Below, in pieces: positions 1,914 to 37,643 of a stretch of DNA of 44,551 nucleotides. The notes under the pieces were generated by a model. It did not search any database, was not told where the DNA came from, and saw only the letters and a list, made by a program, of their open reading frames with translations. The stretch is from the sequence record MW331437.1; one strand, 5' to 3'. A program made the position numbers and the translations under genes. The stretch comes from Escherichia phage phiWAO78-1. Numbering within the stretch: position 1 is the first letter of the stretch; each line of letters starts with the position of its first letter.

Positions 1914-3383
1914 ATGTTAATTATGAACGGTCAGAATCAGGGTGTTAAGACAAAACACCAGGAGTGGCTGCATCACTTTAATAAATGGCAGAAGGTACGA
2001 CACGCGCTGGAAGGCGACCTTATTCGTTATTTGCGCAACGTCGGAAAGAACGAACCTGACCCAACTTACGCCGCCCAGCGTCAGGAAGAATATGAGAACG
2101 GCGCTATCTGCTACAACTTCACTAAACGTACCCTGGCCGGGATGGTCGGCAGTGTCATGCGCAAAGACCCCGAGCAAATTATTCCGCGTGAACTGGAGTA
2201 CCTGTTACGTAATGCTGACGGTTCAGGCGTTGGGCTGTGGCAGCACGCGCAGGACACGCTGATGGAGATTGACTCGGTAGGCCGTGGTGGGCTGCTGGTG
2301 GACGCGCCGGAGACAGCCGCGGCAACGGCAGCCGAACAGAACGCAGGATTATTAAACCCGGTCATCGCATTCTATACCGCAGAGAACATCATCAACTGGC
2401 GGCTGACCCGCGTCGGTTCGGTTAACCGTGTGACAATGGTCGTGCTGCGTGAGGTATGGGAATATTCAGAACCGGGGGCAGAGTTCGAAACCAAGTTCGG
2501 TGAGCAATACCGCGTTCTCGATTTGATTGACGGGCGCTACCGCCAGCGCATTTACCGCTTCGACGCTGAAGGTGGTGCCCAGGATGAAGTAATCGAAATA
2601 TTCCCGGAACTCGGCGAACAGTTGCGCGGTAAAATCCCGTTCACCTTCATTGGGGCAAGCAACAACGACGCTACTATCGACGACGCCCCTTTGCTGCCGT
2701 TGGCTGAGCTTAACATCGGGCATTTCCGCAACAGTGCGGACAATGAGGAATCCAGCTTCGTTGTAGGCCAGCCAACCCTGTTTATTGCCCCGGGCGAGAA
2801 CATGAGCATGGAACAGTGGAAAGAAGCCAACCCCCACGGCGTGCGTATGGGGTCGCGCTCAGGTCATAACATTGGCTACGGCGGCAATGCGTTTCTGGTT
2901 CAGGCAGGAGAGAACAACCTAGCCAAGCAGAACATGCTGGATAAAGAGAATCAGGCCATCCAGATTGGTGCGCAGCTTATCACCCCGACGCAGCAAATCA
3001 CCGCAGAATCGGCCCGCCTGCAACGTGGTGCGGATACGTCCGTTATGGCAACAATCGCGCGTAACGTAAGCATGGCGTACACCGATGCGTTGCGCTGGGT
3101 AGCTGCGATGCTTGGATTGCGTGAAGACACAGAGATTGAATTCAAGCTGAATATGGAGTTCTTCTTGCAACCGATGACCGCGCCCGAACGAGCGCAGTGG
3201 ATGGCGGATATTAACGCTGGCCTGCTGCCTGCTACTGCTTACTACGCGGCATTGCGTAAGGCGGGGGTAACTGACTGGACTGACGAGGACATTCAGAACG
3301 CTATCGAGGACGCACCACTGCCGTTAGGTGCTGTCACTCAGGTGGCGGGGGAGATTCCGCAGTCGGCACAGCAACAGGAGTAA
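1914..3383 (+). CDS. Portal protein
   Basis: 489 aa ORF directly after TerL with AAGAGGA SD; size and position typical of portal. Confidence 0.75.
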   Translation: MLIMNGQNQGVKTKHQEWLHHFNKWQKVRHALEGDLIRYLRNVGKNEPDPTYAAQRQEEYENGAICYNFTKRTLAGMVGSVMRKDPEQIIPRELEYLLRNADGSGVGLWQHAQDTLMEIDSVGRGGLLVDAPETAAATAAEQNAGLLNPVIAFYTAENIINWRLTRVGSVNRVTMVVLREVWEYSEPGAEFETKFGEQYRVLDLIDGRYRQRIYRFDAEGGAQDEVIEIFPELGEQLRGKIPFTFIGASNNDATIDDAPLLPLAELNIGHFRNSADNEESSFVVGQPTLFIAPGENMSMEQWKEANPHGVRMGSRSGHNIGYGGNAFLVQAGENNLAKQNMLDKENQAIQIGAQLITPTQQITAESARLQRGADTSVMATIARNVSMAYTDALRWVAAMLGLREDTEIEFKLNMEFFLQPMTAPERAQWMADINAGLLPATAYYAALRKAGVTDWTDEDIQNAIEDAPLPLGAVTQVAGEIPQSAQQQE

Positions 3384-3391
3384 AATGGGAA

Positions 3392-3415
3392 AGCCCCGTT
3401 ATGGGGCTTTAACTT
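3392..3415 (+). terminator. Terminator-like hairpin after portal gene
   Basis: AGCCCC-GTTAT-GGGGCT stem-loop followed by T-containing tract; U-tract is imperfect. Confidence 0.4.
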
Positions 3416-3718
3416 TCCAGACTTCCCTGAGCGCTACGAGTTTATGATTGCCGATATCTCTCGATATTATTGAATCAGTAAAGCCATTGAACCATGACTT
3501 CATCCAGTCAGACGTTCTAAAATCGGCGTACAGAATGTGTATTGTTTGTGGGGCGTCAACGTTGTAATGTTGGCAGACATAAATGCATCCGCTGGAGATT
3601 ATAATAGCTTTGAACGTATCGTAGTCTTCTGAATCCGGGAACTCGCTAGAATCCCCGACAAGATATCTGTACGCGTATTTTTTTTATTCGTCTTTTTTCT
3701 TTTCCGCATAGTACTTTC

Positions 3719-3958
3719 TCAGAAGTGCCTGACTGGTTGTTTAAACTTCCAGTCACAATCTACATGTTTAATAGCACCTTTCGCAACAAGACTGTCTATA
3801 AATTCCGGCCCTGAATTTGTCTTGTACCATGTGTATCTGTTGCCGACTTTTACGTTTGGGAGGCTGTGGTACACAACATCACCAACCACCATAAAAGAAA
3901 CACCGATAGCCCCTTTTTCTGCATAAAGTTTTTTAGCAATACCCCTCATGTATAACAT
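3719..3958 (-). CDS. Hypothetical protein (accessory cassette A)
   Basis: 79 aa ORF on opposite strand to the flanking structural genes, second gene behind promoter element A. Confidence 0.4.
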   Translation of the reverse strand: MLYMRGIAKKLYAEKGAIGVSFMVVGDVVYHSLPNVKVGNRYTWYKTNSGPEFIDSLVAKGAIKHVDCDWKFKQPVRHF

Positions 3959-3969
3959 CTCCTGCGTAG

Positions 3970-4164
3970 TTAGTAAGGTAAGGCCTTGCGAATTGTATAC
4001 CCATATCCGAGGTAGCCGTTTTCCTCTTGCATAGCGGAGGCACGCAGCAGAGCAGCATTCTCGCCTTTTACTACAGCTACCACATAATCCGTAGAGTCTG
4101 GGCCGTTTTCTACAACTCCATACGCCTGTACGTTCTTGGTGGTAAGTTCATATGTGTTAGTCAT
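3970..4164 (-). CDS. Hypothetical protein (accessory cassette A)
   Basis: 64 aa ORF; ATG 4164 preceded by AGGAA SD and the conserved promoter element A. Confidence 0.45.
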   Translation of the reverse strand: MTNTYELTTKNVQAYGVVENGPDSTDYVVAVVKGENAALLRASAMQEENGYLGYGYTIRKALPY

Positions 4165-4195
4165 TTCTAAATTCCTTATCTCTCGTTTCGATAAC

Positions 4196-4228
4196 TGAAT
4201 AGTACCCTATTATATTGGGGTCTGCAAA
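4196..4228 (-). promoter_or_regulatory. Class-1 conserved promoter-like element, copy A (TTGCAG-N17-TACTAT with AATAG-N4-CTATT dyad)
   Basis: 33-bp element shared with copies at 6082, 15681, 37611, 39002; about 35 nt upstream of the minus-strand ATG at 4164. Confidence 0.6.
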
Positions 4229-4271
4229 TATTATTTTTATGCGTTACACTGGCGATACCACAGGAGGGCAT

Positions 4272-5315
4272 ATGAGCTTACTTACATCCCTAATCAGCCA
4301 CCAGATATGGCTGCAACGCACCGCATCCGGCGAAGTGAAAGACCTTGCACCATTTCTTCAGGAAATGCGGGACGAAATCAAACGGCAGGTCCTGTTATTC
4401 GGTGACGACGGGCGAAGCACTGCGCGACTGAATAAACTGTTACGCGACCTTGAAGAAGCACTGGCAGGACTTACCGGTGACTGGCAAACAAAGCTGACAG
4501 AAGACCTTAAGGAACTGGCGGCATATGAAGCAGAGTGGAACGTAAAAACGCTAACGGCTAGCGTTAACGCGGAATTTGTTACACCTACCGCCGAACAGGT
4601 GTGGGCCGCTGCCGAGTTTCAACCGCTCTCATTGAGCGACAAGCCTGTCGATTTCACTAAGTTGATGTCCGGTTGGGGTGAAGCCGAAGTCGCTCGCCTT
4701 GTAACAGGCGTTAAGATGGGTTTCGTACAAGGTCAGACGACACGGCAGATTGTTAAGAATGTCGTAGGCGCGGGCGGGCTGGCTGACATCTCCGAGCGAA
4801 ACGCCGCTACAGTAATACGTACTGCGCTATCGCACGTGTCCAACGAAGCCCGCAACGAGACGTACAGGCAAAACGACGACATCATCGAGAAGTACGAATG
4901 GGTGTCAACGCTGGACAGTCGTACCAGTACGATTTGCAGAGCCAGAGACGGAATGACGTGGGAAATTGGTATGGGGCCGATGCCCCCCGCCCATCCGAAC
5001 TGTCGATCGTGCACAGCCCCGGTAATTAGCTCGGAGTTCGACTTCCTCGATAAAGGCGCGAAACGTGCAGCTAAGGGTGCGGAAGGTGGTACCCAGGTGA
5101 GCGCGGACACCGCCTATTATGAGTTCCTTAAACAACAACCGGCATGGTTTCAGGACCAGGCACTAGGGCCGGTTCGCGGTAAGATTTTCCGCAACAGCGG
5201 TATATCGCCGGAAGAGTTTCGCGTAATATCTGTAGATGGTTTCGGGAATCCGCTCACGCTTAAGCAGATGGCGGAACTCGATAAACGTGTCGCTGATTAT
5301 CTGAAAGGGGAATAA
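4272..5315 (+). CDS. Head morphogenesis protein (phage Mu F / SPP1 gp7-like minor head protein)
   Basis: Region TLDSRTSTICRARDG...PPAHPNCRSCT resembles the conserved C-terminal signature of this family; position after portal; start at ATG 4272 with GGAGGG SD (ORF open from 4215). Confidence 0.7.
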   Translation: MSLLTSLISHQIWLQRTASGEVKDLAPFLQEMRDEIKRQVLLFGDDGRSTARLNKLLRDLEEALAGLTGDWQTKLTEDLKELAAYEAEWNVKTLTASVNAEFVTPTAEQVWAAAEFQPLSLSDKPVDFTKLMSGWGEAEVARLVTGVKMGFVQGQTTRQIVKNVVGAGGLADISERNAATVIRTALSHVSNEARNETYRQNDDIIEKYEWVSTLDSRTSTICRARDGMTWEIGMGPMPPAHPNCRSCTAPVISSEFDFLDKGAKRAAKGAEGGTQVSADTAYYEFLKQQPAWFQDQALGPVRGKIFRNSGISPEEFRVISVDGFGNPLTLKQMAELDKRVADYLKGE

Positions 5316-5776
5316 TGATGGGCTTTTTCAAAGTAACCGATGTACCGTCGCGTCGTGTTGTCCAGTACGCCCGCGTGTCTGGCTCCGGTGAGAACGTTGT
5401 GTTTATTGAAGATGAAAGTGTACTTGGTACACCGGTAGACGATATGCCGTTTGCGGATAAGACCGGTATCGCGCTACCAGCGGCTGGTATGCTTTATGAG
5501 ATTCCGTATCTGGCTGATGCTGGCGACGTGTACTTCTCTGTGCAACCGAAAGACACTGAACTGGCTGACGGCAGCGCAACCATCACTGTCGAAGTTAAGG
5601 CGGGCAAAGCGCCATACGCGCTTACCTGGTACAAAGACGGCAAGGAAGTGGTAAACGCCCCGGAAGAGGCTTTGTCTCTGACGGTTAATGTAGTCGGTGA
5701 ATACTTCGTTAAAGTTACTGATGCTGATGGCGTAGAGGCAGTTAGCAAAGCGGCGAAGGTCACTAAACCGGAATAA
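5315..5776 (+). CDS. Ig-like domain-containing structural protein (putative)
   Basis: C-terminal motif YALTWYKDGKEV...GEYFVKVTD resembles immunoglobulin-like domains; start overlaps stop of upstream gene (TAATGATG). Confidence 0.45.
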   Translation: MMGFFKVTDVPSRRVVQYARVSGSGENVVFIEDESVLGTPVDDMPFADKTGIALPAAGMLYEIPYLADAGDVYFSVQPKDTELADGSATITVEVKAGKAPYALTWYKDGKEVVNAPEEALSLTVNVVGEYFVKVTDADGVEAVSKAAKVTKPE

Positions 5777-5777
5777 A

Positions 5778-5805
5778 CTGAGGCCCCGAAAGGGGCCTCA
5801 GTTTT
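5778..5805. terminator. Bidirectional rho-independent terminator (CTGAGGCCCC-GAAA-GGGGCCTCAG)
   Basis: 10-bp perfect GC-rich stem with T-runs on both strands, between convergent genes ending at 5776 and 5804. Confidence 0.75.
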
Positions 5806-6055
5806 AATACCCAGTCTCTTGGGTTAAGTTAATCTCTTTATTCCAGACGTTTCGGTCATACTTTTCACGAATCTGGCGCATACTTCTGCCGACCGCGGCG
5901 GATAGAGACGTATCCCCATCTTCTTGCGCGTCCAATTGAATCCGCCGAAGCCCAATATACGCCGAAATATCGCCGCGTAATTCGGCCTGTTCATACTCTT
6001 TTTTAAGAAAAGAACCAAGGTCCTGTACACGATGTTTTGCTGGTTTCGTAATCAT
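5804..6055 (-). CDS. Hypothetical protein (accessory cassette B)
   Basis: 83 aa ORF; ATG 6055 with GAGGAGAG SD about 25 nt downstream of conserved promoter element B. Confidence 0.45.
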   Translation of the reverse strand: MITKPAKHRVQDLGSFLKKEYEQAELRGDISAYIGLRRIQLDAQEDGDTSLSAAVGRSMRQIREKYDRNVWNKEINLTQETGY

Positions 6056-6081
6056 TTCTTCTCTCCTCTTGTTGGTGTGAA

Positions 6082-6114
6082 TGAATAGTACCCTATTATA
6101 TTGGGGTGTGCAAA
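6082..6114 (-). promoter_or_regulatory. Class-1 conserved promoter-like element, copy B
   Basis: TTTGCACACCCCAATATAATAGGGTACTATTCA on the minus strand; the best match to the family consensus. Confidence 0.6.
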
Positions 6115-6179
6115 CTATTTGTTTACGTATTCCAGTTATTCAACTGATTTGTAAATGATGGAATAAACTATTCGAATAG

Positions 6180-6208
6180 TTGACTTTTCACTAAAAATGT
6201 GCTAAGCT
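6180..6208 (+). promoter_or_regulatory. Candidate sigma70 promoter (TTGACT-N17-TAAGCT) preceded by palindrome CTATTCGAATAG
   Basis: Good -35 with 17-nt spacing and a weak -10; palindrome 6168-6179 abuts the -35. Confidence 0.3.
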
Positions 6209-6214
6209 CCACCT

Positions 6215-6412
6215 GAGCTTGTGAAGTATGAACAAGCGACCGCGGCGCGGGCAGGTAACGGAGCGGGACGTAAGTCCTGAGTGTAGTTACGCTGACGCGT
6301 TCGGAAGGGCCGTACTCTATTGCTTGTGTAAAAAGTAACTGGTTTACTGAGATTACGCCGTTTCTATGTTTAAATGATAAGGCCTAGCGCCCCGCTTTAC
6401 GGCGGGGCTTTA
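6215..6412 (+). ncRNA. Candidate small non-coding RNA or leader transcript (about 200 nt)
   Basis: Promoter-like element at 6180-6208 and intrinsic terminator at 6389-6415 bracket a region with no ORF of 60 aa or more (only a 36-codon basic ORF from 6228 lacking a clear SD). Confidence 0.25.
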
Positions 6413-6415
6413 CTT
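6389..6415 (+). terminator. Rho-independent terminator (GCCCCGC-loop-GCGGGGC + TTTACTT)
   Basis: 7-bp GC stem followed by T-rich tract, 18 nt upstream of the spanin start. Confidence 0.6.
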
Positions 6416-6432
6416 ATCGAGAAAGGAGAAAC

Positions 6433-6819
6433 ATGAATCTTAAAGCAACTGTCGTAGCGGGGGCGTGTTTCATCATCCTGGCTTACGCACACGGCCTCTA
6501 CCAGTATCGCATCGGCTGGAATGAAGGCCGGGCGAATCTCGTTTCGCAGCAACAGCAGAAAGCACAGGCTGAGTTAGCGAAGAAAACACAACGGCAGCAG
6601 CAGGACGAATCGAAGGCCGCCGCCGCTGACAACGAAGGCAAGACGAAATCAGAGGTAATTACCCGTGAAGTCGTTAAGTACATTAAAACGCCTGGCCGCA
6701 GCGTGTGCACTTTTGACCCTGAGCGCGTGCGGCTCAAGTCCCGCGCCGTCGCAAACGCCAATTCCATCCCCGGATACGACGATGATGCAGCCGCCGTGCA
6801 AACTGGCACCGCCAAGTAG
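6433..6819 (+). CDS. i-spanin (Rz-like inner-membrane spanin component)
   Basis: N-terminal transmembrane segment VVAGACFIILAYA followed by Q/K/A-rich coiled-coil-like region; a lipoprotein ORF overlaps in the +1 frame. Confidence 0.6.
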   Translation: MNLKATVVAGACFIILAYAHGLYQYRIGWNEGRANLVSQQQQKAQAELAKKTQRQQQDESKAAAADNEGKTKSEVITREVVKYIKTPGRSVCTFDPERVRLKSRAVANANSIPGYDDDAAAVQTGTAK

Positions 6820-13233: not shown

Positions 13234-13260
13234 AAGGCCCCTTTTGGGGCCTTTCTTCTT
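13234..13260. terminator. Bidirectional rho-independent terminator (AAGGCCCC-TTTT-GGGGCCTT)
   Basis: 8-bp stem with T-tracts on both strands between convergent genes ending at 13229 and 13259. Confidence 0.7.
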
Positions 13261-13813
13261 ACAAACCTAATTTTAAAGCAATGTCTATAACGTTCGATTT
13301 AACGTCACCCGGTATGATATATGTGTCGCAATCTTTTACACCATCAACATCATACAAGTAACCACGGCTATCCCCGTCAAACGTATAGCCGTCTCGGTGC
13401 AAGCGAACAATTCGCACTTCATGCCCAGCGGCGACGATAGGAGCCACTTCACTGGCGAACCCACCGTCGGACACTACAAAAACTTCGTCGCCGTCGGGCA
13501 AGTTTTCAGCAAGATACTTACCGAAATAATCATCGCCGAATACCGGTTTAATGAATTGTTCAGAGATAGCAATCATGAATTGACGGCGAGACAAACCATT
13601 AAGGAATCCTTCTGGCTTTTCTTTCCGCGCCCGGTCGTCGTAGCCGTCGAGAAACTCGTGGTAAGCATCCGGGCCTAACGCTGCCAGAGCGATATTGAAC
13701 ATTGGATTCTTGAAACTGGTAGTTCCTTTCGCAAAGCCCATTTCTACCAGTGCCATAGCAAGTGTGTCTTTCCCGCAACCCGCAGGGCCATTAAGAATAA
13801 TTACATTAGCCAT
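13259..13813 (-). CDS. P-loop nucleotide kinase, deoxynucleoside-monophosphate-kinase-like
   Basis: N-terminal Walker A LNGPAGCGKDT at residue 7; size and GKDT loop resemble phage dNMP kinases (T4 gp1 type). Confidence 0.55.
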   Translation of the reverse strand: MANVIILNGPAGCGKDTLAMALVEMGFAKGTTSFKNPMFNIALAALGPDAYHEFLDGYDDRARKEKPEGFLNGLSRRQFMIAISEQFIKPVFGDDYFGKYLAENLPDGDEVFVVSDGGFASEVAPIVAAGHEVRIVRLHRDGYTFDGDSRGYLYDVDGVKDCDTYIIPGDVKSNVIDIALKLGL

Positions 13814-14298
13814 TATTTATCGCTCCCATGTGATTTTAAGCGTGTAGAGTTCCCGTTACAGTCGTATTCAGTAACCGCGTGCGTCGTGATTCCTAAGCCA
13901 CGGAAATGCTTAATCACCGCTGGCGAGTCGTCGAATGCACACAAGATTCTTTCCAGTCCGATAGCGCGCAACACCTCTTCTTTAATTACGATGTCTTTTC
14001 TGTTGTCGTGTTTGCTACGCATGATTAACTGATAAAATTCGACGCGGTGGCGCTGCAGCCACATTCTGGTTTCTTTTTCTGCATCATCACTGCGACCGGT
14101 TAAAATAATAACGGCGTATCGCCGATTAAGGGCGTTACATAGTTCGATATTATCTCTAATTGGCTCATCGTCTTTGCACGCCATGTTAAATGGCCTCCAA
14201 GCCCATGTTTCGCCGTAGTTATCTTTTGGCAGCAGGTGTAAACGATGTGTACCATCTGCTAATGTCCCGTCTAAATCGAAAATTACAATATCTTTCAT
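13813..14298 (-). CDS. HAD-superfamily phosphatase/hydrolase
   Basis: N-terminal motif I IFDLDGTLADG (DxDGT nucleophile motif) typical of HAD phosphatases. Confidence 0.6.
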   Translation of the reverse strand: MKDIVIFDLDGTLADGTHRLHLLPKDNYGETWAWRPFNMACKDDEPIRDNIELCNALNRRYAVIILTGRSDDAEKETRMWLQRHRVEFYQLIMRSKHDNRKDIVIKEEVLRAIGLERILCAFDDSPAVIKHFRGLGITTHAVTEYDCNGNSTRLKSHGSDK

Positions 14299-15317
14299 CC
14301 CAGCATCTCCGGTGAAATAGTTAAACGCGCAACCTCGCCATATTTGGCGCTATAAGTAATTACATTTGCGCTACGGCCCGACATCCATCCGCCGCGGGAG
14401 GCGTAGGCGTCTTTAGCCGCTAAGGTGCGGTGTTGCTCAACAATCATGTTACGGCTTTCTACAATCTTCTGATGGTGCAGGTGACCTACGTGTGCGTAGC
14501 TGTAGACGCTCTCGCCGAACGCTTTGCGGAACTTGGCAATCATAACTGGTTCGATAGCGTCGAATCGCGCCTTGTGTCCGTGGGTAAAGAACAGCGTCGT
14601 TTTGCCGTGCTGCACCATCTTGTAAACATCCGGCGACGTATCGACGAACACACGCGGCTCATTGTCGTACAGCGTACTGAACATCTCAGCCAACCAAATC
14701 ATACCCGATTCGTCGTGGTTCCCTTGCACGATAAGCAGTCGGACGTTTTTATGTTTAACGAGCGCCATATCAACAACACGGCGTACCATACGAATCATGT
14801 AGCGGACAAGTTTCTGATAACGGGTGTCGGCGTCAAGAGCGTGACCGCTTGCAGGTGTAACGGCAACCAGACTATCGAAGTGCGCGAAGTCGCCTAGCAG
14901 GTTAATAACTCCGGTCCCAGCGTCCGGCGCTTTCTGAAACGCCTCGTCGAACCATCGGGAGAACAGGCCCTCCGCGATTTTCATATCCCAGTCGTCGCCG
15001 CTCTCGTCGGCCCAGGCCAGCATACCGAGATGGAAATCAGACACAGTGTAAAGATTGAGTAGTTTATCGTCGCGTTTGGCGCGAATGGTTTTAACAGGTG
15101 CAACGGGGGTAATCTCTGACTTCATGCCTTCAATTACGGCTTTCATCAACTCGACCTGACGTTCGGCGTCGGTTTCTGTCTTAACCCATTGCAACTTAGT
15201 ATTGCCGAGTTCGTCCACCAGAGACGACGTCCCCTTAATCTTGTAGCCGTCCGGGACAAGGTGACTAACGTCGCGACCGTGACCTACGCCTTTCTTGGCC
15301 AGCTCGCTTTCGGACAC
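14295..15317 (-). CDS. Calcineurin-like metallophosphoesterase
   Basis: Ordered motifs D-x-H (VSDFHLG), GD (LLGDFAHFD), GNH[DE] (VQGNHDE), FTHGH and GHLHH; GTG start; roughly 80-aa N-terminal extension before the first motif. Confidence 0.7.
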   Translation of the reverse strand: MSESELAKKGVGHGRDVSHLVPDGYKIKGTSSLVDELGNTKLQWVKTETDAERQVELMKAVIEGMKSEITPVAPVKTIRAKRDDKLLNLYTVSDFHLGMLAWADESGDDWDMKIAEGLFSRWFDEAFQKAPDAGTGVINLLGDFAHFDSLVAVTPASGHALDADTRYQKLVRYMIRMVRRVVDMALVKHKNVRLLIVQGNHDESGMIWLAEMFSTLYDNEPRVFVDTSPDVYKMVQHGKTTLFFTHGHKARFDAIEPVMIAKFRKAFGESVYSYAHVGHLHHQKIVESRNMIVEQHRTLAAKDAYASRGGWMSGRSANVITYSAKYGEVARLTISPEMLG

Positions 15318-15423
15318 GAATTACGCGGTCTGAGATGCCGTATTTACGGGCTATATCGATAGTTTTAACTCCGGCGTTCAATTCTTCCTGTAATTGTTCG
15401 TCGGTTATTTTCTTCTGGGCCAT
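15265..15423 (-). CDS. Small HTH-containing protein (52 aa), overlapping the 5' end of the metallophosphoesterase ORF
   Basis: ATG 15423 with GAGGAAG SD; sequence TIDIARKYGISDRVIRVRKRA looks like a helix-turn-helix; different frame from 14295-15317. Confidence 0.3.
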   Translation of the reverse strand: MAQKKITDEQLQEELNAGVKTIDIARKYGISDRVIRVRKRAGQERRRSRSRR

Positions 15424-15461
15424 GCTTACTTCCTCGTGTTTAGGATTTGTCCTATACTAGC

Positions 15462-15653
15462 TCACTTCTCGTTAACATTCGAGTTGCATGCCCAGATTAA
15501 AATAAAGACCCACGGCAGCAGAATCCAACCAAGAAACAGATTGGCCATGAATATCGCCAACTTCGCTTTATGGTTGCGGAAATACGCAACCAGGAAAGGT
15601 GCGAAATAAGCGAGCAGCGCAAATAGAATTAGGGAAACCGGTAAACTTGACAT
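15462..15653 (-). CDS. Superinfection-immunity-like small membrane protein (Imm family-like)
   Basis: 63 aa, two hydrophobic segments; motif YFRNHKAKLAIFMANLFLGWILLPW resembles the superinfection immunity protein family; first gene behind promoter element C. Confidence 0.55.
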   Translation of the reverse strand: MSSLPVSLILFALLAYFAPFLVAYFRNHKAKLAIFMANLFLGWILLPWVFILIWACNSNVNEK

Positions 15654-15680
15654 TTTAAACCCCTTCGTTGTCGGTGTAAG

Positions 15681-15713
15681 TGAATAGTACCCTATTATAT
15701 TGGGGCGCGCAAG
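15681..15713 (-). promoter_or_regulatory. Class-1 conserved promoter-like element, copy C
   Basis: CTTGCGCGCCCCAATATAATAGGGTACTATTCA on the minus strand, about 30 nt upstream of ATG 15653. Confidence 0.6.
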
Positions 15714-34243: not shown

Positions 34244-34459
34244 ATGCAACCATCTGAACTAGGCATCCGTGTAGAGCAACGCCGTAAAGAACTCGGCATC
34301 TCCCAGCGCCGTCTGGCAGTCCTGACCGGCGTTTCCCAGGGCGCAATTAACCAGCTGGCACTTGGGGTAACTCAGGACGTCCGCCCGGCGACGCTGTTTA
34401 AACTGGCGGAAGTGCTGCAAGTAGACGCGAAGTGGCTGGCGCTAGGTGAAGGGGCTTAA
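34244..34459 (+). CDS. XRE-family helix-turn-helix transcriptional regulator (Cro/CI-like)
   Basis: 71 aa; ISQRRLAVLTGVSQGAINQL is a classic XRE-type HTH; AAGGAG SD; divergently transcribed from the early operon. Confidence 0.7.
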   Translation: MQPSELGIRVEQRRKELGISQRRLAVLTGVSQGAINQLALGVTQDVRPATLFKLAEVLQVDAKWLALGEGA

Positions 34460-37541: not shown

Positions 37542-37610
37542 AGTTACCAAGTAATAAGAATAAAGGCACGACCCTCCCTAAAGAATCACAACGGCAACGT
37601 AACTATTCTC

Positions 37611-37643
37611 TTGCACACCCCAACATAATAGGATACTATTCAC
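37611..37643 (+). promoter_or_regulatory. Class-1 conserved promoter-like element, copy D
   Basis: TTGCACACCCCAACATAATAGGATACTATTCAC on the plus strand about 30 nt upstream of the first gene of the rightward small-ORF array. Confidence 0.6.

Follow-up and report, generated by a model that had tools for sequence, protein, structure and literature searches.

The 44,551-nucleotide (nt) genome of Escherichia phage phiWAO78-1 (MW331437.1), which was analysed over its whole length and is referred to below as the window, is a Kagunavirus genome (Guernseyvirinae): a megablast search with positions 3200-6300 returned 206 phage records, mostly of Escherichia and Salmonella, with an identity of approximately 88-90% to Kagunavirus genomes of 41-45 kb. 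Its head module, in which the portal, head-morphogenesis, Hoc-like and spanin genes lie on the plus strand, contains two minus-strand units, one at the junction of the portal and head-morphogenesis genes (site A) and one at the junction of the Hoc-like and spanin genes (site B). These units, cassette A and cassette B, combine a predicted promoter with small cargo genes and a hairpin (Table 1), and have a GC content of 0.43-0.46, compared with 0.51-0.55 in the portal, head-morphogenesis and Hoc-like genes. Both sites were compared in 75 IMG/VR loci around the head-morphogenesis gene, in each of which the four flanking genes were located; the term close relatives refers to the 41 loci in which this protein shares at least 90% identity with that of the window. 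The sequences compared are given L numbers, several of which stand for named isolates (L001, fBC-Eco01; L077, Salmonella phage pink; L080, SXAU_B4; L132, fPoEco01; L133, Sciku).

Table 1. Features of cassettes A and B, their flanking genes and related elements in phiWAO78-1 (promoters, hexamers and leaders are predicted).
Feature	Position	Strand	Description
Portal	1914-3383	+	PHROG, Pfam
Cassette A hairpin	3392-3415	both	AAAGCCCC-loop-GGGGCTTT; bidirectional, ends portal (+) and cassette A (-)
Cassette A, third cargo gene	3399-3709	-	approximately 102 amino acids (aa) when intact; stop codon in hairpin loop
Cassette A, second cargo gene	3719-3958	-	79 aa; open reading frame (ORF) with Shine-Dalgarno sequence
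Cassette A, first cargo gene	3970-4164	-	64 aa; ORF with Shine-Dalgarno sequence; motifs VVENGPDSTDYVVA and NGYLGYGY
Cassette A leader and Shine-Dalgarno sequence	4165-4196	-	leader type 'ttatcgaaacgagagataagga'
Cassette A promoter	4197-4228	-	-35 TTGCAG 4227-4222, 17-nt spacer, -10 TACTAT 4204-4199, dyad 4198-4211
Head-morphogenesis protein, Mu-F/SPP1-gp7 type	4272-5315	+	PHROG, Pfam
Hoc-like Ig decoration protein	5315-5776	+	PHROG, Pfam
Cassette B hairpin	5778-5805	both	10-bp GC-rich stem, GAAA loop; bidirectional, ends Hoc-like gene (+) and cassette B (-)
Cassette B cargo gene	5804-6055	-	83 aa; ORF with Shine-Dalgarno sequence
Cassette B leader and Shine-Dalgarno sequence	6056-6082	-	leader type 'attcacaccaacaagaggag'
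Cassette B promoter	6083-6114	-	-35 TTGCAC 6113-6108, -10 TACTAT 6090-6085, dyad 6084-6097
Rz-like spanin	6433-6819	+	PHROG, Pfam
Third promoter copy	15682-15713	-	heads minus-strand island in tail module
XRE-family helix-turn-helix gene	34244-34459	+	Pfam HTH_3, 48.2 bits; candidate dyad regulator
Fourth promoter copy	37610-37641	+	heads rightward block of small genes, function unassigned; compare the equivalent region of Bas72

Both cassettes begin with the 32-nt repeat GAATAGTACCCTATTATATTGGGGTNTGCAAA, which is identical at the two promoter positions and recurs with three mismatches in the third copy (same orientation) and in the fourth (opposite strand). Four copies within five mismatches are thus found in the 44.5-kb genome (0.00 expected from 100 shuffles), two of them inside the head module, and a repeat search extended the similarity between A and B to 69 nt (75% identity). 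On the minus strand, the 31-nt motif TTGCAn-N17-TACTAT, with ACCCCAATATAATAGGG as its 17-nt spacer, is followed by a leader of approximately 25-30 nt, a Shine-Dalgarno sequence and a start codon, and it was found at the correct spacing from the latter two in 44 unique promoter instances. The 25 nt upstream of the -35 hexamer are characteristic of one site or the other; on its downstream side, a small set of leader types is shared by at least eight unrelated cargos, and the leader type of cassette B also follows the promoter at 15682. The cassette A promoter keeps a constant distance to the head-morphogenesis start in all occupied A sites, while that of cassette B lies back to back with a plus-strand promoter at 6172. 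The exact promoter core was found in IMG/VR only on contigs of up to approximately 45 kb, largely the same Kagunavirus contigs.

Alignment with relatives identified the space of approximately 300 nt between the cassette A hairpin and the gene at 3719 as a third cargo gene, which is intact in L016, L015, L080 and L077, and whose frame is broken in the window by a +2 insertion in an A-run near 3680-3690, representing either a pseudogene or a homopolymer sequencing error. The hairpins fold at -13.2 kcal/mol (minus strand) and -15.6 kcal/mol (plus strand) in cassette A (z-scores -2.0 and -3.0), and at -25.6 and -26.0 kcal/mol in cassette B (z-scores -5.4 and -6.8), with short U-runs on both strands. 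At empty sites, the stop codon of the portal or Hoc gene is still followed directly by a hairpin, which lacks the upstream A-run that provides the minus-strand U-tract and which at empty site B is a shorter, one-directional version; the hairpin is therefore read as the terminator of the upstream plus-strand gene, which becomes bidirectional when the site is occupied. A first-pass annotation, made from the sequence alone, had placed one promoter class at the head of both minus-strand units and had listed the ORFs 3719-3958, 3970-4164 and 5804-6055; the exact repeat bears out the former, and the latter are all present, each with a Shine-Dalgarno sequence. It had described cassette A as a two-gene unit, which holds for these two genes and overlooks the third, and had assigned to each cassette a terminator of its own: the stable minus-strand hairpins with U-runs agree with a terminator, although not with a private one, as they also end the upstream plus-strand genes and persist in empty sites.

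Across the 75 loci, the gap between the flanking genes ranges from 8-96 bp up to 1476 bp at site A, and from approximately 320-345 bp up to 3431 bp at site B. Among the close relatives, site A was empty in 25 loci and occupied in 15 (12 with the minus-strand motif), and site B was empty in nine and occupied in 27 (26 with the motif). An empty site A measures 84 bp in 17 close relatives and 68-105 bp across all 25, compared with 891 bp in the window; site B measures approximately 345 bp when empty, compared with 659 bp in the window. Altogether, 38 of the 42 occupied sites contain the promoter motif, and it is absent from all 34 empty ones. Among the four occupied sites without it, that of L020 has the same leader behind a divergent version of the cassette promoter, and in L006 and L027 the Jerseyvirus-type gene is preceded by another promoter, TTGACA-N17-TACCAT, whose spacer is palindromic. 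The cargo ORFs at both sites are all on the minus strand and belong to more than ten unrelated families per site. In the 84-bp empty site A (L002, L004, L005 and others), a 25-nt stretch beside the hairpin is, compared by eye, approximately 60% identical to the promoter core, including ATAG-N4-CTAT; this could be the remnant of a lone promoter or a chance resemblance.

At least five cargo families occupy site A in some phages and site B in others: a 173-aa beta-clamp-related protein, an N6/N4 DNA methylase, a 94-128-aa family, a 57-60-aa family, and the 64/79/102-aa cassette of the window, which is present at site B of L015 with its third gene intact. Behind the other two promoter copies, at 15.7 kb and 37.6 kb, none of these five first-gene families was found. 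When whole gaps are aligned in pairs, identity rises from noise to 92-99% at the -35 hexamer, holds through leader, cargo and stop codon, and ends within the hairpin, while beyond these limits the sequence of cross-site pairs is site-specific (L001 site A with L028 site B, approximately 99%; L015 A with L009 B; L065 A with L064 B; L030 A with L022 B). Cultured isolates have the same distribution: in Sciku and fBC-Eco01 the clamp-like gene occupies site A, fPoEco01 has it at site B, and record coordinates place it at site A in SHAK7693 and NRG857CP3 and at site B in fFiEco02. The 68-bp site A of L025 has a hybrid hairpin, with an occupied-type left half and an empty-type right half, which indicates that a crossover took place inside it. 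A search for target-site duplications and terminal inverted repeats gave none, and the only repeated end sites are the promoter and the hairpin. Homologues of cargo ORFs are present in unrelated phages, with a homology that leaves out the promoter. Genome comparison demonstrates that cassettes are present, absent or replaced among close relatives, and that a given cassette moves from one of the two sites to the other. The suggestion of the first-pass annotation that the cassettes are mobile or recombination-prone units with variable cargo is thereby supported, the same cassettes lying at A or B between promoter and hairpin, as is its expectation that both junctions vary in relatives; the invariant occupancy that would have spoken against it is contradicted by close relatives ranging from empty sites to more than ten cargos.

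We consider it likely that sites A and B are two docking sites for interchangeable minus-strand accessory-gene cassettes in Kagunavirus. A cassette would consist of a lineage-specific promoter-leader of approximately 55-60 nt, one to three small cargo genes of low GC content and a GC-rich bidirectional hairpin terminator. Exchange may proceed by homologous recombination during co-infection, with the promoter-leader and the hairpin of approximately 20-25 nt serving as short homology arms, and with the conserved structural genes on either side as arms when an empty site is filled or an occupied one emptied. Plausible agents are the phage gp2.5-like annealing protein and an exonuclease: the annotation of Bas72, a carefully annotated relative, lists a gp2.5-like single-strand annealing protein, exonucleases, an endonuclease VII and a resolvase. 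It does not list an RNA polymerase, an integrase or a lysogeny module, and Kagunavirus genome notes call these phages lytic.

The expression of the cassettes may be inferred from the other copies of their promoter. The third copy is followed by a gene (15462-15653) for a superinfection-immunity protein (Pfam Imm_superinfect, 47.9 bits), this first gene varying among relatives between three alternatives. Host sigma-70 RNA polymerase would read the cassette promoter early in infection, as suggested by the fact that the same promoter class heads the 37.6-kb small-gene block and the 15.6-kb superinfection-immunity gene. The dyad AATAG-N4-CTATT, which overlaps the -10 hexamer, occurs eight times in the genome (0.04 expected), at 4198, 6084, 15683, 27847, 31597, 34155, 37627 and 39018; five copies belong to the cassette promoter class and three lie in the spacers of leftward TTGACn-N17-TATAGT promoters, every copy that was read in sequence having a promoter-like context. 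The dyad may be the operator for a phage repressor, which would account for the conservation of the motif outside its hexamers, and the XRE-family protein is put forward, as a hypothesis only, as the candidate repressor of the dyad-bearing promoters. Its gene is reversed within the replication operon, behind two dyad elements and before a bidirectional hairpin of its own, and is itself a promoter-gene-terminator unit. Such a repressor could silence the cassettes ahead of late plus-strand transcription through them, by which a head-on conflict would be avoided.

The minus-strand island headed by the third promoter copy (13259-15713) displays at its 3' end approximately 1 kb that is absent from Bas72, encoding a P-loop kinase-like protein (13259-13813) and a polynucleotide-kinase-type HAD phosphatase (13813-14298), a pair that could represent cargo for RNA- or DNA-end repair. 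The minus-strand metallophosphatase/'DNA repair exonuclease' gene at 14295-15423 is split into ORFs of 52 and 340 aa by a break near 15317-15330; Bas72 and L044 have it undivided, with 376-377 aa. This is the second frameshift of the phiWAO78-1 genome.

The 64-aa protein of cassette A is the only one of the three intact cargo products of the window with a result in the Pfam, PHROG and PDB searches, matching phrog_16707 (function unassigned) with an E-value of 1.4e-14. It has 32 homologues, on phage contigs of up to 230 kb, its family is also found in Klebsiella, Cronobacter and Aeromonas phages, and in Klebsiella phage VLCpiS13e the homologue is likewise reverse-oriented, between the large terminase and portal genes. 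The 79-aa protein had no match in PHROG, Pfam or PDB, and the intact product of the third gene had none in Pfam or PHROG. The homologue of the 79-aa gene in L016 begins at the second ATG (3949) and encodes 76 aa, and this ATG is probably the true start in the window as well. The 83-aa protein of cassette B has only 11 homologues among 5.8 billion proteins, most of them on contigs of approximately 44 kb; at the DNA level, its homologues among GenBank phages are confined to one other Kagunavirus and a distant one in Wifcevirus Bas101, and searches of PDB, Pfam and PHROG and with Foldseek gave no significant match. AlphaFold2 predicted an alpha/beta fold for the 64-aa protein (predicted local distance difference test, pLDDT, 82) and three helices for the 83-aa protein (pLDDT 86), and neither model had a Foldseek match in PDB below E = 1. 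Compared codon by codon with two relatives, the 64-aa gene has synonymous to nonsynonymous differences of 12:3 and 7:4, the 79-aa gene of 16:12 and 9:9, and the 83-aa gene of 6:8 and 5:8. All three lean to purifying selection, since these ratios exceed the neutral expectation, which was taken as approximately 1:3, a rough approximation that was not computed.

The cargos of relatives at sites A and B include an N6_N4 DNA methylase (E-value 2e-28), a lipoprotein, small membrane proteins, a Vut_1/YhhQ-like transporter beside a 244-aa protein without a Pfam match, and an endonuclease-VII/HNH-like protein. This mix fits roles in counter-defence and exclusion without proving them, and the cargos would be dispensable host-interaction genes serving counter-defence or superinfection exclusion. 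GenBank labels for the 173-aa cargo of fBC-Eco01, Sciku and others conflict ('DNA polymerase III sliding clamp' and 'RusA-like Holliday junction resolvase'); the protein is single-domain and has a weak match to one beta-clamp domain (Pfam E-value 0.006).

Several points weigh against the proposed docking sites and their expression. The motif is predicted to be a promoter from its sigma-70 layout, and transcription of the minus strand is deduced from this layout: its hexamers match the sigma-70 consensus moderately (approximately 8 of 12 positions by our own count, the scanner threshold being 9), and a generic scan for sigma-70 promoters and terminators reported neither the cassette promoters nor the hairpins, which did not reach its thresholds. 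A perfect TATAAT inside the spacer makes the position of the true -10 hexamer uncertain, and the early timing is suggested solely by analogy with the other promoter copies. One of the cargo genes (3399-3709) is frameshifted, and the three other cargo proteins of the window have no recognisable function in Pfam, PHROG or PDB, or, for the 64-aa and 83-aa proteins, with Foldseek. Many of the IMG/VR loci come from one metagenome (3300045988), so that the locus counts do not represent independent samples. The proposed mode of recombination is deduced from the breakpoints, and selection acting on random illegitimate events could also place breakpoints at functional boundaries; the hairpin arm is short, with approximately 20-25 nt. 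A time-course RNA-seq study of K1B4, the closest relative and a carrier of the same cassette A, called 57 ORFs; the cassette genes are missing or mis-called there, and their expression class is not given in the text.

A more far-reaching version of the docking-site model is possible and is offered tentatively: the cassettes may form an integrase-free, integron-like system in which ORFs are captured from unrelated phages at two sites of the structural operon, with the promoter-operator-leader of approximately 60 nt and the GC hairpin as arms for annealing by gp2.5 and exonuclease, and with silencing by the XRE protein before late transcription. Among the alternatives to docking by shared ends, the best surviving one, which we regard as unlikely, holds that the 31-mer is mainly the recombination or homing target of a dedicated enzyme (a site-specific recombinase or a homing endonuclease), its promoter activity being secondary or absent. 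The conservation of the motif far beyond the needs of sigma-70, its dyad and its coincidence with the cassette boundaries would agree with such a target, as would the HNH- or endonuclease-VII-like cargo of a few relatives and the HNH gene at the adjacent junction of the head-morphogenesis and Hoc genes. However, no integrase or recombinase is listed in Bas72 and the cassettes of the window encode no endonuclease; the motif always lies at promoter distance before a Shine-Dalgarno sequence and start codon, including those of the 37.6-kb block and the Imm gene; and the second boundary is an unrelated hairpin instead of a second motif, with no target-site duplications.

The reading of the cassettes as ancestral, fixed genes that relatives have lost differentially, with no movement, is very improbable and is contradicted by the cassette pairs that occupy both sites. 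Empty sites are common, and the promoter-like 25-nt stretch of empty site A (approximately 60% identity by eye) could be a deletion scar; against this, the same cassette is found at two junctions with 92-99% identity while the flanking genes are approximately 88-93% identical, more than ten unrelated cargos occur at each site, and cargo ORFs are common to unrelated phage genera. Still less credit is given to the assignment of the motif to a phage-encoded RNA polymerase. PHIRE detected the repeat, which two Kagunavirus genome notes list among their 'phage promoters', and the fBC-Eco01 genome paper assigns it to a phage polymerase; the Bas72 annotation has no gene for such an enzyme, though, and the motif has the sigma-70 layout of two hexamers 17 nt apart. 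That the movement between sites reflects metagenome mis-joins at the 60-nt repeat is the least credible explanation: many loci do come from a single metagenome, but mis-joins would also need a repeat at the hairpin end, where it measures only approximately 20 nt, and an assembly artefact is excluded because the independently sequenced isolates (fBC-Eco01 and Sciku at site A, fPoEco01 at site B) show the same A/B pattern.

A third variable junction, between the head-morphogenesis and Hoc genes, was observed in L025-L031 and L132, where it contains a plus-strand gene of 184-207 aa that is annotated in fPoEco01 as an I-HmuI-like HNH homing endonuclease. Mobility by a homing endonuclease, which was rejected for sites A and B, applies to this separate junction in some relatives. 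In L049, L053, L054 and L062, an insertion of approximately 820 nt lies inside the head-morphogenesis gene and is annotated as an intein in one GenBank record.

The plus-strand region 6172-6418, directly before the spanin, scaffold and capsid genes, comprises a sigma-70-like promoter (TTGACT-17-TAAGCT), a predicted transcript of approximately 210 nt and an intrinsic terminator at 6389-6408. It is 95-97% identical across approximately 38 Kagunavirus loci and has no match in Rfam, a search of which with the whole window was likewise negative. RNAalifold predicted, within Kagunavirus, 71 pairs, six of them with compensatory double changes, the single-sequence fold being unexceptional (z-score -1.3). 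An RNA is favoured over a protein, since 1-nt indels that are not compensated disrupt the 36-aa ORF of relatives' annotations in L028, L030 and L021, and by analogy the region could be a late-operon leader similar to lambda pR'-6S-tR' or the HK022 put RNA.

Three known systems resemble the cassettes in part. Similar to the morons of lambdoid phages HK97 and HK022 (Cumby et al. 2012, PMC3594210), they represent extra DNA between genes that are adjacent in relatives, and they share with morons the terminator hairpins and the deviating GC content; the motif before their cargo is predicted from its layout to be a promoter. Classical morons are defined in temperate phages, where expression takes place from the repressed prophage and each moron has an unrelated promoter of its own; in contrast, the Kagunavirus carriers have no lysogeny genes according to the Bas72 annotation, one lineage-specific promoter-leader is common to all cassettes, and two fixed sites are contested. 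In the PeSLs of T4-type myoviruses (Arbiol et al. 2010, PMC2839356; Comeau et al. 2014, PMC4122927), orphan genes are bracketed by a stem-loop and a conserved early promoter of sigma-70 type, much as the hairpin and the predicted promoter bracket the cargo here, and indels or replacements between close relatives are bounded by these motifs, which were proposed as recombination points carrying expression signals. A PeSL is one promoter and stem-loop element of approximately 100 bp, repeated approximately 50 times between same-direction genes in hyperplastic regions. The cassettes differ in having the promoter and hairpin at opposite ends, with 0.25-1.4 kb of cargo in between, in having only four to five promoter copies, and in forming antisense islands within the structural operon of a 44-kb siphovirus; empty site A alone has a hairpin beside its weak promoter-like remnant. 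Integron cassettes offer an analogy only, in that promoterless ORFs of diverse origin are inserted at one fixed docking site, downstream of its resident promoter, a likeness that is drawn because only the ORF, and not the promoter, is common to unrelated phages. Unlike in integrons, no integrase is annotated in Bas72, there are no attC or attI sites, exchange is apparently homologous and each cassette brings its terminator with it. By analogy, the cassettes work most like the PeSL-mediated shuffling of T4-type phages. No description of their behaviour was found in the literature consulted, including the BASEL paper and the two Kagunavirus genome notes.

The published assignment of the repeat to a phage RNA polymerase is corrected here, the Bas72 annotation listing no such gene. 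The cassettes provide a compact, experimentally tractable case in which virulent phages acquire and exchange accessory genes with no need for dedicated mobility enzymes, and their pool of small, often exchanged and presumably early genes, which in relatives includes methylases, superinfection-immunity proteins and lipoproteins beside many genes without an assigned function, supplies good candidates for counter-defence or exclusion functions. Kagunaviruses are already used in phage therapy and synthetic biology, and payload genes may be placed in these phages at the two sites, which are naturally permissive for insertions and come with a ready-made module predicted to drive expression.

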